DNA from: Escherichia coli
Lineage (GTDB): Bacteria > Pseudomonadota > Gammaproteobacteria > Enterobacterales > Enterobacteriaceae
Assembly: GCF_044324785.1 (NCBI RefSeq)
Contig: NZ_CP172127.1
Direction: 5' to 3' (one strand)
Length of the DNA stretch: 64,000 nt
Each line of letters starts with the position of its first letter. Position 1 is the first letter of the stretch. Below, in pieces: positions 1-10,067 of this stretch. The notes under the pieces were generated by a model. It did not search any database. It worked only from the letters and a program-made list of their open reading frames with translations, and was not told the DNA's origin. The translations under genes were made by a program, and so were the position numbers.

Positions 1-850
1 CCACTCTTAAAACGCAGGATTTACTGCTTTGTTGCGGGTTATCGAGGATAAAGGCTTTCTGGAAGTCGCGTCCCGAACCCGGCAGCAACTCAGCAACATC
101 ATGCGCTATGCCGTTCAGCAGGGGCTTACCGAAAGCAATCCGGCGCAGCATCTGGATGGCGTTGTCGCCTCACCCGTAAAGAATCACTACCCCGCGTTAC
201 TGCTGGAGCGGTTGCCCGAACTGCTTGGCCGCATCGGTGACTATCAGCAGGGCCGGGAGTTAACACGGCTGGCGGTGGTGCTGACGTTGCACCTGTTTAT
301 CCGTTCCAGCGAACTGCGTTTCGCCCGCTGGAGCGAGATCGATTTCAGGCACAAAATCTGGACCATCCCCGCCACCCGCGAGGCAATCGACAAAGTACGG
401 TTTTCGGGGCGTGGCGCAAAAATACGTACCCCGCATATCGTGCCGCTCTCCCGCCAGGCGATTGCCATTCTGAAACAGATACAGGAGCTTTCCGGCCATC
501 TGGATCTGGTGTTTCCCGGTGATCATAACCCGTACAAGCCAATGAGTGAAAACACCACCAACCGGGCGCTACGCCTGATGGGGTATGATACGAAAACTGA
601 AATCTGCGGGCATGGACTCAGGGCGATGGCCTGTAGCGCCCTGGTGGAATCGGAGCTGTGGTCACGCGATACGGTGGAGCGGCAAATGAGCCACCAGGAG
701 CGTAACAGCGTGCGGGCAGCCTATGTGCATAAAGCGGAGCATCTGGAGGCCAGAAAGGCCATGATGCAGTGGTGGTCGGATTATCTGGATGTGTGCCGCG
801 AGGGGTATGTTGCGCCGTACATTTATGCCCGGCAGCATAAGGCAGCCTGA
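1..850 (+). CDS. tyrosine integrase of tRNA-associated island, P4/CP4-57-like (3' part; gene begins upstream of window)
   Basis: ORF 29..850 is open to window start; C-terminal catalytic-domain motifs (HGLRAMACSAL..., NSVRAAYVHKAEHLEARKAMMQWWSDYLD) typical of island integrases. Confidence 0.85.
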
Positions 851-974
851 ATCAGAAATAGCGGAAATCATTAAAAATGTAAAAGCAGATCCTGATTGAC
901 CGGGATCTGCTTATTGTATTGAGAAGTATTACCATTTTTCTGTTATTATCAATCGGAAAGTATCTAAAAATATT

Positions 975-1440
975 TGTCCCCAAATAATTTTGGTGAAAAC
1001 CAATCAATAAACCATTTATCAATAGGTAAGTACCGGAAATTATTCCAGTAGAATATTTTCAGGCGATTGCCTATTAATAAATACATTATTGATAGATAAG
1101 TGCCTTCTGTGATTTGCCCGCAAATCACAGAAGATGAAAACCTATCAATACGGGATATTTTCACGGAAATACCAATTAATACTCCAGAATATCTCCTGAC
1201 CATATACTCTGAAACCTGTAAGAACTGCATCAGATATTGAGAGACCATATAGATATAAGTGTGAAATTATTTTGTTTCCAATGATTTCAGGCGAAAACCT
1301 ATCAATGCATCTGTTTTCAATAGGCAGCCACCTTCCGTGATTAACATGTTAATCACGGAAGGTGAAAAGCTATCAATAATCGATATTTTCACGGAATTAC
1401 CACTTAATACATCCCAAAAAATGCGCCATAAAATACCGGG
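975..1440. repeat. iteron-like array: ~8 copies of TATCAATA-containing repeats plus two ~90-bp modules, each with a perfect palindrome (1108..1137; 1332..1363) followed by TGAAAA(C/G)CTATCAATA and ATATTTTCACGGAA
   Basis: direct reading of repeated motifs and palindromes in AT-rich DNA immediately downstream of the integrase. Confidence 0.6.
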
Positions 1441-2387
1441 CAATCTTTCCTGATACACATTATCACTGCACCAGCTATACAGAGACAAAATAATCTGCAC
1501 CAGCCCCTGTAAATCGGTTATCTGTGCCAGTGTCCCGCCGCTCTACCTGTTCAGGGTTGTGCCAGTTTCTGGCCCTTTGGTTTTCGGCCCTTTCCGGTCA
1601 GGCGCTGTTACCCTTATTGCCCCTTAACCTTTATGACCCTTTCCCTTTCTGACGCAACCAGTTTATTTTGAAATGCTCCATGACAGTCTGCACCAGACTG
1701 TATTTTCACCACAGGATAACGATCACAAAGTGCAAAAAAATAACATGAAGCACCGAAGATTGTTAATCTATATGTAGCAGGTAATGATGTCAAAAACTGT
1801 CGCAGCATTTTTTATAAAATTATGAGACATTCTGTGGGCATATAATATATGTCACAAGATGCAGGAAAACAAAGAGAGAGTTTTCAGATATAATCCTGCG
1901 TCAGAATTAATGTGATGCCCCGGTGAATTTACATTTTAAAATTTCCCTGTCCCGTAATATCGGTAAAAACGATTGAAACACCAGCTATTAATCGGGAACG
2001 TTTCGAGTGATTACAGGGTAATCACTATAATATCCCGGCAAACTATATTGGTTAAGCAGGAGAATCTGATCAGTTGATACTTATTCGTCATGCTGTAACG
2101 ATATTTTCACAATATAAACCCGTTCGCCCCCTGCGCCAGATCCGGTACAGAGGGTACGATAAATCGCTGTCGTTACGCAGTAACGTACTATTTTGCGACA
2201 TTCATGAATTCAGTCATTCCTCCCTCCAGCGGTAGCCGTACACCTGTTTCACCCAGCGACCGCGACCGTCGCCATGACCCAGATCCGTCGCCGTCAGCGC
2301 CAGTGACTCCTTTTCGCTGAATCCCTGCGCCAGTATCCAGGACTGTCGTATAACGGGGACGCCCGCCTTTGGTGCCAAATACCACTT

Positions 2388-2795
2388 TTAGCCGGGTTTC
2401 ACCGCGTTCAGCCACGTTTTCAGCGACTGTGAACTCTGTACCGCCTCCTGCGAACGCAGCCCCATCAGCCGCGCAATCTCCAGCGCTGCTGCCAGCCCTG
2501 CGTCCTGAGTACGGGCTTTCTCCATCACCTGCCTGCGTCCAGCCTGTCTCAGCACGGCCCGCAACGCTGCCATTTCGTTTTGCAACGTTCGTAAACCAAT
2601 ATCCAGCTCCAGCCGTTCCTCAATGTAGCATTCGATATGGCGAACCTTGATCTGCTCCACCCGCTGGATCTGGATATTCAGCGCCCGTAAATGTTCACTG
2701 AACCGTTTTGTAATATGGATACGGTCATTCACCGTTTTGAAGCTGCCGCCCGCTTTCTTCGCCAGCGCCTTCATTTCACTGCTTAATTTACTCAT
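2388..2795 (-). CDS. hypothetical protein; helical pattern loosely resembles a recombinase N-terminal domain; ends at TAA with ~57 further open codons in frame
   Basis: 135-aa ORF; continuation of the same frame past the stop read manually (…KWYLAPKAGVPV…). Confidence 0.35.
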   Translation of the reverse strand: MSKLSSEMKALAKKAGGSFKTVNDRIHITKRFSEHLRALNIQIQRVEQIKVRHIECYIEERLELDIGLRTLQNEMAALRAVLRQAGRRQVMEKARTQDAGLAAALEIARLMGLRSQEAVQSSQSLKTWLNAVKPG

Positions 2796-3712
2796 GAATC
2801 CCTCTGCAACAAAAACAAACAGTCTCCGGCGTGTGCTTTTTGGCTGCGCCAGAACGATACCTTTACGCCGGAGTGGTAGTTTGTTGAGGTTTAGGGAGTT
2901 TCAGGCTGTACGCAGTACAGACTGCCTGCGAAGCAGGAGTGTCTCCGGGGCTTCTTGCCCCCCTCGGTATCGATCTTTTTCTCCTTTACTCTTAGCTGAC
3001 AGCGGCCCCAAAGGGCATGTCAGACGGCGGAAATATGGCGCAGGCCAGAACTGGCGCGGCTTGTGGCGGTGAGTTGTGCGGCGTCACTTTGCTTTTTCGC
3101 TGGCGCGACCAAAGTGACGCCTCGTCTGGTGCAGGGGGTAAACGTTACGTTTCTGGTGCAGGGTGACGGTCACGCGGCAGCAAAGCCTGACGGCAATGCA
3201 GGCCGCAGCCCGTCAATGTAAGGCGCTGGTTGTCAGCAGAAGATAAAACCCGGCAAAGCCAGAGTGTCAGCCCGTAAAGCCGGGTATCTGGTGCAGTGAT
3301 GGTGTATATGTACGTCAGTCTCAGATGCAGGTATTTTTGCATCCCCGGCGTTTTCAGAGATCAACGCCGGTAAAGGATGCCATGCTGGCGAAGCCAGGCG
3401 CTTCTTTCAGACGTGAAGCGACAAAGGGACTGCCCGGAGGCAGTTTGTTGCAGGCGGGAGACTGCGCCATTATTTCTGGTGCAGGAAGGAAAAACTGTTT
3501 CCGGGTTTAAAAGATTGTTTGCTTACCTGGTGACGGAAAAACTGTCGCGCTTCGCTTGTCTTCTCCCGGCGCGGCTGCCAGCAAAAGCAGGCAGCGCGCC
3601 GGGAGAGTCTGGTTTTACTGTAACAATGCGCCTGACGGTTCAGCCATCAGGATCGGCGTTTATGCATGAGTCTTCCGGTACGGTTGCCCCGATCATCGAT
3701 GTATCTGGACGG

Positions 3713-3901
3713 TCAGATAATTTCCGGTGATGTTTCCAGCGCATCCGCAATCAGTTTTTCGCCGCGCGGCCTGGAGCGGGTCAGCGCATTTGCCAGCGTG
3801 GAAGACGCCAGCCCGGCCCTGCGGGAAACCTCAGCCAGCGATGTTCCCTTTTTTCTCAGGCCCGCGATAATATCGGCGGGGTGCCAGTCGGGTTGCATCA
3901 T
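3713..3901 (-). CDS. Ner-like DNA-binding regulator (Nlp/SfsB family)
   Basis: 62-aa protein with WHPADIIAGLRKKGTSLAEVSRRAGLASSTLANAL, closely matching the Ner/Nlp HTH signature; start overlaps stop of the upstream gene. Confidence 0.8.
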   Translation of the reverse strand: MMQPDWHPADIIAGLRKKGTSLAEVSRRAGLASSTLANALTRSRPRGEKLIADALETSPEII

Positions 3902-9062: not shown

Positions 9063-9118
9063 GTATGAGGTATTTTCTCTTTATATTTATAACAATCCCC
9101 CTTATCTCTGGAGGTCAT

Positions 9119-9667
9119 ATGAGTAATGATAGCGAAAAGATAATATCAACATATTCGCTCAATTTTTTATCACCAGATGATGTGAGGAAAGAAGAACTTA
9201 AGGCATCACAAGGTGATAGTGATGCTGCATTTAAATTGTACAAATATTACCTTTTTTGCGAGCCAAAATCATACAGAAAACAGCACGAATGGTTAATAAT
9301 ATCGGCAAATAATGGAAATGCTATAGCTCAATATAACTTATCAAGAGAACTTGAGTCAGAAGGAAAAGTAGATGAATCAATACAATGGCTGAAAAAATCA
9401 GCGGAACATGGTAATAATTATGCACAATATCAGATGTCAAAATATTTATTAAAAATAGGTGATATTAGAGGATCGGAATATTATCTAAACTTATCTGCGG
9501 ATAACGGATGTGTATTTGCAATAAAAGATATTATCAAAAATATGATGGATAGTGGAAGGTACGATGACGCCCTCATTTGGGTTGAAAAATTGAAAAAATT
9601 GTATCCTGACACAAATACCGAACTTTACATACAAAAAATAACGCAGAAAAAAAAGCAATCCAAATAA
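9119..9667 (+). CDS. putative Rhs immunity protein with Sel1-like repeats (alternative start 9065)
   Basis: ORF immediately downstream of toxin tip, AT-rich; Sel1-type repeats (AQYNLS...WLKKSAEHGNNYAQYQMSKYL); GGAGG RBS before ATG 9119. Confidence 0.6.
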   Translation: MSNDSEKIISTYSLNFLSPDDVRKEELKASQGDSDAAFKLYKYYLFCEPKSYRKQHEWLIISANNGNAIAQYNLSRELESEGKVDESIQWLKKSAEHGNNYAQYQMSKYLLKIGDIRGSEYYLNLSADNGCVFAIKDIIKNMMDSGRYDDALIWVEKLKKLYPDTNTELYIQKITQKKKQSK

Positions 9668-9947
9668 TAATTATATATAATTACTCGCACAGAGTTACAG
9701 TATTGCAAGAAATATATCTAGCATATAAAGTCGCCGCCAGTAAAGATAAAGTACTGTGTAATCCTTCCTCCCATATAGGGGTAAAAACTTAGCATCCAGT
9801 GCCCTCGACTTAATTTTTAGTATTTTCTCTGTGAAGTGACACTTCGTAGGATTCAGTTCATGTTTACCAGAAAAAAGGTGGTCATTCTGGTGGTCTTGAC
9901 AATCTCGATTTTTTGTTTTAGCTTTCCAATCAGCCAATTAATGGCTA

Positions 9948-9963
9948 CGGCGATCCCAGTCAG
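9948..9963 (+). other. tRNA-Asn 3'-end remnant (CCAGTCAGAGGAGCCA), putative distal att repeat of the island
   Basis: 16-nt exact match to the 3' end of the tRNA-Asn found intact at 25228..25303. Confidence 0.6.
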
Positions 9964-10032
9964 AGGAGCCAAATTTTAGTTTTGAGACATCTCTATGAGT
10001 CTCAAGACAGTTAAAAAATAAAAATTATTTTT

Positions 10033-10067
10033 ACCCGGTTACCTTGTAAAAAGTGACCGGGTTTTTT
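10033..10067 (+). terminator. rho-independent terminator (ACCCGGT stem, T-run)
   Basis: 7-bp stem ACCCGGT/ACCGGGT followed by TTTTTT directly after the tRNA remnant. Confidence 0.5.

Follow-up and report, generated by a model that had tools for sequence, protein, structure and literature searches.

Evidence that an Rhs toxin gene at asnW in Escherichia coli lies on a decayed asn-tRNA integrative island

We analyzed a 64-kb stretch of Escherichia coli DNA (64,000 nucleotides of contig NZ_CP172127.1, hereafter the window), wherein the first 10 kb hold the greater part of an integrase gene, a group of phage-like regulatory features, an Rhs toxin gene with a small gene directly behind it, and a short copy of the 3′ end of tRNA-Asn. 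An initial annotation of these letters had proposed that the region is a genomic island at a tRNA-Asn site that carries the Rhs locus. The record used for comparison was that of E. coli N3 (NZ_CP031609.1, from position 2872984 on the plus strand), taken with 8 kb of extra flanking sequence (locus L001), such that a window position is obtained by subtracting 8000 (through 3573) or 7999 (beyond it) from the L001 position. Window positions 1 through 10400 are 100% identical to this record apart from a single 1-nt indel at 3574, where the window has an extra G (GCGCGGCTG in the window versus GCGCGCTG in NZ_CP031609.1). Judged by this match, the window comes from a slightly different assembly version of N3 or from a near-identical strain. 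We consider it very probable that window positions 1 through 9975, together with the 588 nt that precede them, form a 10.5-kb integrative island in the 3′ end of asnW, that this island belongs to the same class as the high-pathogenicity island (HPI) and the colibactin (pks) island, that its cargo is an Rhs toxin-immunity pair, and that it has decayed in N3.

The boundaries of the island are defined by the tRNA gene and by an empty site. An intact asnW gene lies at L001 7352–7427 (window −648 to −573), 573 nt ahead of the window, and the start codon of the integrase gene lies 161 nt 3′ of it on the same strand. The tRNA-Asn gene and the integrase 5′ end were thus both found just upstream of the window, where the initial annotation had proposed to look for them. 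At the other end, the final 16 nt of tRNA-Asn, CCAGTCAGAGGAGCCA, recur at 9956–9971, and exact identity to the left junction runs on through AATT, to 20 nt. The tRNA remnant noted earlier is therefore real, but it had been placed 8 nt away (at 9948–9963), and the exact repeat is 20 nt long. Besides the asnT gene (minus strand, 25228), the 16-mer occurs in the 64-kb window only at 9956–9971; its chance expectation is approximately 3e-5 copies per 64 kb, counting both strands.

In K-12 MG1655, which represents the empty site, asnW passes straight into sequence that is colinear with window positions 9956–10435. The left junction of N3 is the same as K-12 as far as ...GCCAAATT, and island sequence lies beyond. 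Because K-12 is colinear from asnW directly into 9956–10435, the 10.5 kb represents a precise insertion, whose length between the repeats is 10,543 bp in the N3 record and 10,544 bp in the window's version. This comparison with a genome lacking the insertion agrees with the earlier proposal that everything from the integrase to the repeat is island cargo, given that K-12 lacks precisely the segment between the repeats. Nor is the 16-nt match part of a longer unrelated conserved sequence, an outcome that had been named in advance as one that would contradict the proposal; from these alignments it can be identified as the crossover repeat.

The sequence that precedes the right repeat is identical in N3, AW1.7, O121, AMSCJX03, and O145 (these other copies are described below), and the attachment site of the free element can be reconstructed with the layout GCTACGGCGATC-core-CAAGTTTTCATG. 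The 9-mer AATCCTTCC is common to both arms of this attP site, although a single pair of this kind could have arisen by chance. We also observed that the last ~87 nt of the island (9869–9955) are present at 86–96% identity in genomes without this Rhs toxin, such as NRG 857C; by its distribution, this segment may be an att arm common to other asn-tRNA islands.

Table 1. Features of the asnW island and of its right-hand flank. Coordinates are window positions unless preceded by L001; aa, amino acids.
Feature	Position	Strand	Details
Left direct repeat	L001 7412-7431 = window -588 to -569	+	Exact 20-bp match to right repeat
P4-family tyrosine integrase, C-terminal two thirds in window	1..850	+	Gene starts 411 nt ahead of window; L001 7589-8850
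Two ~130-nt modules ("iterons" of the initial annotation)	1052-1182 and 1280-1410, within 1001..1410		73% identical to each other
Second tyrosine-recombinase-like gene (Phage_int_SAM_2 + Integrase_1)	2214..2795	-	Pfam E 5e-41 and 5.6e-14
EFASI RNA motif, directly 5′ of Integrase_1-type gene	2851..2978	-	Rfam RF02957, 100.8 bits vs gathering 51.2, full-length
Ner/SfsB-like HTH_35 regulator gene	3713..3901	-	Pfam HTH_35 E 1.5e-23
153-aa protein, first gene of minus-strand operon	3898..4359	-	Annotation; conserved in all island variants
C4 antisense RNA	4413-4501 (leader 4413..4598)	-	Rfam RF01695, 62.2 bits vs gathering 45
a1/b1 target motif	4546-4598	-	c4-a1b1 RF03163, 43.8 bits, just below gathering 46.7
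Intact Rhs toxin gene, 1393 aa	4881..9062	+	Core 4881-8642; C-terminal toxin 8643-9059 (aa 1255-1393)
Presumed immunity gene, TPR/Sel1-like repeat protein	9065..9667	+	2 nt after Rhs stop; RefSeq start 9119
Island-side right arm of attachment site	9668..9955	+	Terminates in GCTACGGCGATC in each island copy inspected
Right direct repeat (attR core) CCAGTCAGAGGAGCCAAATT	9956..9975	+	16 nt of tRNA-Asn 3′ end + AATT
Native chromosome 3′ of asnW, outside island	9976..10067	+	Colinear with K-12
asnW terminator	10034-10067	+	Stem CCCGGTTAC (10034-10042) / GTGACCGGG (10053-10061), T6 at 10062-10067
yeeN	10420-11136	-	Annotation

The gene adjoining asnW encodes an integrase related to those of both better-known islands. 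The open reading frame (ORF) at 29–850 carries the Phage_int_M and Phage_integrase domains (Pfam), which constitute the C-terminal part of a tyrosine recombinase, and the 144 codons directly 5′ of the window encode an Arm-DNA-bind_3 domain (Pfam). Aligned over 98% of its length, the intact homologue from AW1.7 is 49.5% identical to Int of phage P4 (E 1e-125), which bears out the P4-type label that the gene had been given. Identity of the integrase is 70% to the HPI Int of strain 042 and 71% to the Int of the pks island of SCU-116, and the 160-nt stretch between the tRNA gene and the integrase start, which serves as the attL arm, is homologous in the Rhs island, HPI, and pks.

Alignment to intact copies reveals that the N3 integrase frame is broken by a 1-nt deletion near window position 22–23, after ...KTQD, and the gene is annotated as a frameshifted pseudogene. 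Many frameshifts are annotated in N3 (amn, dkgB, and tssA among them), and we therefore considered whether this lesion might be an assembly error. That possibility was rejected when the same lesion was found in the independent assembly of NRZ14408, which has the same island at asnW, an Integrase_1-type gene that is likewise annotated as frameshifted, and an intact amn. Because an independent assembly carries the identical lesion, we take it, from the sequences compared, to be real and ancestral to the N3/NRZ14408 lineage. Given that the integrase is frameshifted in N3 and its relatives, the island copy of N3 has probably lost the ability to move by itself. By gene content the element also does not resemble an integrative and conjugative element (ICE), since no relaxase, coupling protein, or mating-pair formation gene was annotated or detected in the 10.5 kb. 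As a separate observation, the core genes of N3 that are annotated as frameshifted comprise amn (window 11478–13088, minus strand), dkgB, tssA, and a gene for a VasL-domain protein, which suggests that residual indel errors are present in the N3 assembly.

Islands of the same family were then sought in a set of 5426 complete genomes. When only the integrase was used as the query, matches of at least 90% nucleotide identity were recovered from 477 of the 5426 genomes (~9%), and the non-Rhs backbone (window 851–4880) was at least 80% covered in 264. Six island copies were inspected. In AW1.7 and O121:H19 16-9255, the island lies between asnU and cbl, and in AMSCJX03 its neighbors are asnT and yeeJ, and both the Rhs C-terminus and the immunity gene differ. 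The copy of O145 RM9467 at asnT (L006 108–13883, RM9467-C1) has the same ends and backbone, and in place of the Rhs gene it carries tssG, tssF, vgrG, two unknown genes, and a PAAR gene. In STEFF_1 (L007 8350–19426), the backbone is present at asnW together with HigA, an Ash-family gene, DUF2169, an IS3 insertion sequence, and Rhs fragments or orphans. D72 has two copies of this integrase type, at asnT and asnV, and the latter is followed by IS1 and sugar genes of the phosphotransferase system (PTS; L009 16361–20700).

Where a copy could be read at both ends, its left junction consists of tRNA...GCCAAATT and then the island sequence CAAGTTTTCATGCT (CCTGTTTTCATGCT in O145), and its right junction consists of GCTACGGCGATC|CCAGTCAGAGGAGCCAAATT and then the native sequence downstream of the tRNA gene at that site. 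Because identical island ends are joined to the flank that belongs to each tRNA gene, these arrangements indicate site-specific integration into alternative, identical attB sites. The occurrence of the same element family at asnT, asnU, asnV, and asnW is explained by the identity of the four asn tRNA genes of E. coli to one another. Lengths of the Rhs-type island at three sites fall between 9.5 and 10.9 kb. Junction-spanning counts place this integrase at asnW in approximately 58 genomes; the asnW query gave 366 full-length matches, but 308 of these are ~86% identical and of the pks type, as confirmed for SCU-116. The corresponding counts are up to 87 genomes for asnU and ~68 for asnV. The count for asnT can be given only as a range of ~190–370 genomes because summary tables did not separate this integrase from the HPI type, to which most full-length matches belong, as confirmed for strain 042. 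In N3, asnW alone of the four asn tRNA sites is occupied, and asnT (25228–25303, minus strand) is intact in the window without an adjoining integrase or island. Thus, a tRNA gene with an adjacent integrase, a distal repeat, an empty attB site, Int homology, and the use of alternative attB sites, which together characterize asn-tRNA islands with P4-type integrases, were all found for this element. The earlier suggestion that the Rhs element is horizontally mobile is supported as a statement about its past, given that islands of the same family reside at asnU (AW1.7 and O121:H19) and at asnT (AMSCJX03 and O145), each on its native flank.

Both pks and HPI have P4-like integrases and flanking direct repeats, and both can use several asn tRNA genes (PMC8209727). 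The HPI of Yersinia and E. coli at asnT resembles the Rhs island in its insertion into the 3′ end of an asn tRNA gene, in the adjacent P4-family integrase and homologous tRNA-integrase arm described above, and in its tRNA 3′-end repeat; in Yersinia it can enter any asn tRNA gene (PMC8209727). However, HPI is ~30–36 kb long and its cargo specifies the siderophore yersiniabactin rather than an Rhs toxin. The right repeat of the E. coli HPI has been lost (PMC8209727), whereas the Rhs island retains both repeats, and HPI has no Integrase_1/EFASI or C4/Ner-like backbone directly after its integrase, which in strain 042 is followed at once by ybtS. The pks island shares the same attachment site, usually at asnW, and a homologous attL arm, and it has direct repeats at its flanks and can occupy alternative asn tRNA genes (asnW, asnU, or asnV) (PMC8209727). 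It differs in that it is 54 kb long, carries polyketide and nonribosomal peptide synthetase cargo, and is sometimes linked to an ICE remnant, whereas the Rhs island is 10.5 kb long, has no transfer genes, and has an inactivated integrase in the asnW lineage.

The largest gene of the island encodes an Rhs protein with a full core, as the initial annotation had stated. Residues 1–1254 score 2592 bits with the NCBIfam model RHS_core ("RHS element core protein"), whose cutoff is 2000, and the protein comprises RHS repeats, DUF6531, an RHS-associated core that ends in DPLGL (the PxxxxDPxGL motif), and a C-terminal domain of 139 residues. The "PAAR-Rhs" designation it had received fares less well in its first half, because the support for PAAR consists of a literal motif and a Pfam PAAR_motif match that is below threshold (E 0.035, 14.8 bits versus a gathering value of 27). 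Like the clade I Rhs elements (K-12 rhsA–E), the gene has a conserved N-terminus, a DPxGL junction, a variable C-terminus of low G+C content, and a presumed immunity gene downstream. Unlike them, its core is set apart: the island cores from asnW, asnU, and asnT exhibit 90–95% nucleotide identity to each other but only 81–84% to K-12 rhsA, rhsC, and rhsD, and on these values they constitute a separate subfamily. Because the island cores are nearer to each other than to the K-12 rhs genes, the Rhs gene can be said to move with the island rather than to have been converted from resident loci.

The 139-residue C-terminal domain matched no Pfam family (Peptidase_C80 and DUF4347 included) and no PDB sequence, and it has 18 database relatives only, several of them Rhs-associated. 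In their alignment, a His-Gly pair is almost invariant, and the Cys of a Ser-Cys-Asn-Thr-Gly motif is fully so. The AlphaFold2 model derived from this alignment is of very high confidence, with a pLDDT (predicted local distance difference test) value of 96.6, and a fold search with it returned the cysteine protease domains (CPDs) of MARTX and TcdA/TcdB toxins, the DUF4347 type VI secretion system (T6SS) effector Tce1, gingipain, CHAT domains, and caspases. The predicted model has the caspase-like fold of clan CD peptidases, with a candidate His-Cys dyad. We infer that the domain is a predicted clan-CD (CPD-like) cysteine-protease toxin with a putative dyad of His1286 and Cys1326. Note that it exhibits only 9–18% sequence identity to the CPDs of MARTX and large clostridial toxins (peptidase C80) and to Tce1 (DUF4347), that it is much smaller at 139 residues, and that it would act as a delivered toxin rather than as an autoprocessing module.

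The product of the gene directly behind the Rhs gene has weak tetratricopeptide repeat (TPR) matches and is annotated as a tetratricopeptide or sel1 repeat protein. This gene accompanies the C-terminal toxin domain in 91 genomes, the median number of such places being one per genome, and the gene at 9065–9667 is presumed from such linkage to be the immunity gene. For delivery, N3 has a T6SS cluster at aspV (N3 4715001–4765000) with hcp, vgrG, and a degraded Rhs gene.

Between the integrase and the Rhs gene lies a backbone of phage-like regulatory features. The two ~130-nt modules near its left end, which had been described as iterons, each contain a perfect palindrome of 30–32 nt, and they are accompanied by CTATCAATR boxes. 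The four exact matches to this box in the 64-kb window all lie within 1001–1378, as do 8 of the 32 matches that contain one mismatch. Island copies at other sites have kept the modules; STEFF_1 retains one of them, in which the palindrome center has changed from ACATGT to ACGCGT with its symmetry kept. The clustering of repeats and boxes is therefore real, but a two-copy module of ~130 nt with scattered 9-nt boxes and no rep gene does not have the architecture of an iteron-type replication origin, which would call for at least three tandem direct repeats of ~17–22 bp beside a rep gene. No rep gene was detected on the island, no iteron array was reported by Tandem Repeats Finder, and the 1001–1410 region yielded no Rfam match and its overlapping ORFs no Pfam match.

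The second recombinase-like gene (Integrase_1 type) is annotated as frameshifted in N3 and NRZ14408 but is intact, at 294 amino acids, in AW1.7, AMSCJX03, and STEFF_1. The EFASI motif that precedes it belongs to an RNA class found upstream of integrase genes, with unknown function, according to the Rfam description quoted in PMC12370729. STAXI RNA, a frequent companion of EFASI, was not detected in the Rfam search. The Ner-like operon proposed earlier was confirmed by its HTH_35/SfsB-like gene, although in N3 the protein is truncated at its C-terminus (62 versus 84 amino acids, with the last 22 residues missing from the alignment); the full-length homologue matches NCBIfam SfsB and the PHROG 769 "transcriptional repressor." The 153-residue protein encoded by the first gene of the operon matched no Pfam, PHROG, or NCBIfam family.

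By its sequence, the operon leader at 4413–4598 represents a phage-type antisense-RNA immunity arrangement on a non-phage island. As in the P1/P7 c4 and P4 CI leaders, an RNA of the C4 family is preceded by an a1/b1 target motif. In contrast to those phages, the operon specifies the 153-residue protein and a Ner-like repressor, resides on a non-phage island, and is followed by no antirepressor or replication genes. Homologous operons in other E. coli genomes are annotated with Ash-family genes. The score of the isrK model at the leader was below the Rfam threshold.

The sequence comparisons show where the island ends, that the site is empty in K-12, that several tRNA genes are occupied, to which family the island belongs, and that its genes have decayed; the mode of integration, delivery by the T6SS, protease activity, and the immunity function are inferred from them as follows. 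A P4-family integrase encoded beside the tRNA gene would have recombined the attP site of the island with the tRNA 3′ end, and this recombination would have regenerated the tRNA gene and left the 20-bp direct repeat at the distal end. The Rhs polymorphic toxin would be delivered via the T6SS of the strain, its CPD/caspase-like C-terminal domain would act as a cysteine protease, and the downstream TPR/Sel1-like protein would shield the producer. The phage-like regulatory backbone between integrase and cargo holds the EFASI-preceded second recombinase-like gene and the C4-led operon for the Ner-like repressor and the 153-residue protein. In N3 and its lineage, the island is now a fossil that is inherited with the chromosome; both recombinase genes are frameshifted, the Ner-like gene is truncated, and no excisionase was found.

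Several observations weigh against this view of a mobile toxin-immunity island. Neither an excisionase (AlpA/Xis-like ORF) nor a transfer function was found among the island ORFs by Pfam and PHROG searches that included small ORFs. Approximately 54 of the ~58 asnW carriers match the yeeO flank of N3 at 99% identity or more, compared with 96–98% for most E. coli. Because nearly all carriers share this flank allele, the sequence comparison suggests that the asnW copies derive from one old insertion that was inherited vertically and do not reflect recent mobility. The Rhs cores differ by 5–9% between copies at different sites, so the events are old. Cargo also varies between copies (the T6SS fragment of O145, the PTS genes of D72, and the Rhs remnants of STEFF_1 that are disrupted by an insertion sequence), and because of this the Rhs module may have entered the backbone secondarily. 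Moreover, no vgrG or chaperone gene adjoins the Rhs gene, whose PAAR match is sub-threshold. Finally, delivery of the toxin by the T6SS in N3 is plausible but uncertain because the tssA and VasL-domain genes of this strain are annotated as frameshifted.

The variation in cargo also permits a different view of what the original mobile unit was. The compact Rhs island might be what erosion has left of a larger element, phage-like or auxiliary to a T6SS, that carried vgrG, a DUF2169 adaptor, PAAR/Rhs genes, and more regulators, of which N3 would retain the integrase end, part of the immunity and regulatory region, and a single Rhs-immunity pair. Such an origin would fit the T6SS genes that accompany the same ends and backbone in O145, the HigA, Ash-family, DUF2169, and Rhs remnants of STEFF_1, the phage hallmarks of the backbone (the C4 antisense leader, the PHROG 769 Ner-like repressor, and the Ash remnant), and the presence of several decayed genes in N3. 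However, none of the variants examined has vgrG together with a full Rhs gene, and no inspected copy contains phage structural or replication genes or satellite genes (sid, psu, delta, or alpha). In addition, the tight range of Rhs-type lengths at three sites suggests that the compact form itself integrated. We regard an eroded origin as possible, with the balance of these points somewhat against it; it is compatible with the asn-tRNA island proposed here and would alter the identity of the original mobile unit.

We find it very improbable that the island came to be present at several sites without involvement of the integrase, through inversion or homologous recombination among the four tRNA genes, which are identical. 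In pks-positive strains, the asnW-asnU-asnV segment has been found inverted (PMC8209727), and the tRNA region of STEFF_1 is rearranged, with the cbl-nac segment missing. Nevertheless, on geometric grounds an inversion between opposed tRNA genes should keep each 3′ flank in place and could not move an element that is attached to a 3′ end, and each attR consists of the same island end joined to the native flank of its tRNA gene, which is the signature of site-specific insertion. The chance is slighter still that the Rhs gene is an ordinary chromosomal element beside the remnant of an unrelated, separately decayed insertion: although the nearby Rhs positions 7 and 8 were cataloged as chromosomal without an integrase or tRNA gene (PMC2935791) and the integrase is a pseudogene in N3, K-12 lacks exactly the 10.5 kb that the repeats enclose, the repeats also bracket Rhs and immunity genes at three different tRNA genes, where the island ends are identical, and the island Rhs cores form a subfamily of their own.

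The catalog in question is that of Jackson et al. (2009), who placed Rhs position 7 between yeeO and cobT and position 8 between yodB and yeeJ and contrasted the E. coli Rhs loci with a Salmonella rhs gene that is housed in a mobile element (PMC2935791). Position 8 was considered labile and probably laterally acquired, and neither a tRNA gene nor an integrase was mentioned (PMC2935791). By their flanking genes, positions 7 and 8 match the asnU/asnV and asnT copies, respectively, whereas the Rhs locus of N3, between asnW and yeeN, lies outside both intervals. In the literature that was searched, we found no description of this asn-tRNA Rhs island, the only related entries being these nearby Rhs positions (PMC2935791).

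The asnW element is thus a real but fairly unremarkable and, by now, disabled island of the asn-tRNA class to which HPI and pks belong, with a third type of cargo on the same integration module. One E. coli Rhs subfamily rides an HPI/pks-type island at asnT, asnU, and asnW, in contrast to the earlier view of Rhs loci as chromosomal and outside mobile elements (PMC2935791), and the same integrase type occurs with different cargo at asnV. The island explains part of the variation in Rhs repertoire between strains and ties the exchange of toxin-immunity pairs to a well-studied integration module. Since the asn-tRNA cluster also houses HPI and pks, a third occupant bears on how those islands are acquired and stabilized. 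Current understanding is not overturned by these findings. Their significance would increase somewhat if this family turned out to shuttle T6SS effectors in general or upon validation of the protease-like toxin, and the toxin domain, the EFASI RNA, and the C4 RNA are ready targets for experiments.

A broader proposal can be put forward tentatively, and taken jointly its parts are somewhat doubtful. The integrase/att module could represent a third widespread family of E. coli asn-tRNA islands, present in ~9% of complete genomes, that is specialized in shuttling T6SS "ammunition" (Rhs toxin-immunity pairs and vgrG/PAAR sets) among the four asn tRNA genes. Within E. coli, the toxin could be the first of an undescribed family of clan-CD protease toxins that is neutralized by a TPR/Sel1 protein, and the C4-RNA/Ner-like switch and EFASI/Integrase_1 module could control the island. 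If the shuttle were real, it would provide a concrete route for the origin of new Rhs loci, among them the one between asnW and yeeN and positions 7 and 8 in the catalog of Jackson et al.

Elsewhere in the window, serU (26295–26384, plus strand) is intact. The terminator that the initial annotation had placed beside yeeN was recovered as a hairpin whose T-run ends at 10067, with a minimum free energy of −9.3 kcal/mol for 10036–10072. A pattern scan for terminators missed this asnW hairpin because its 10-nt loop is above the limit of the scan; it was identified by folding and by comparison with K-12, which has the same hairpin and terminator.

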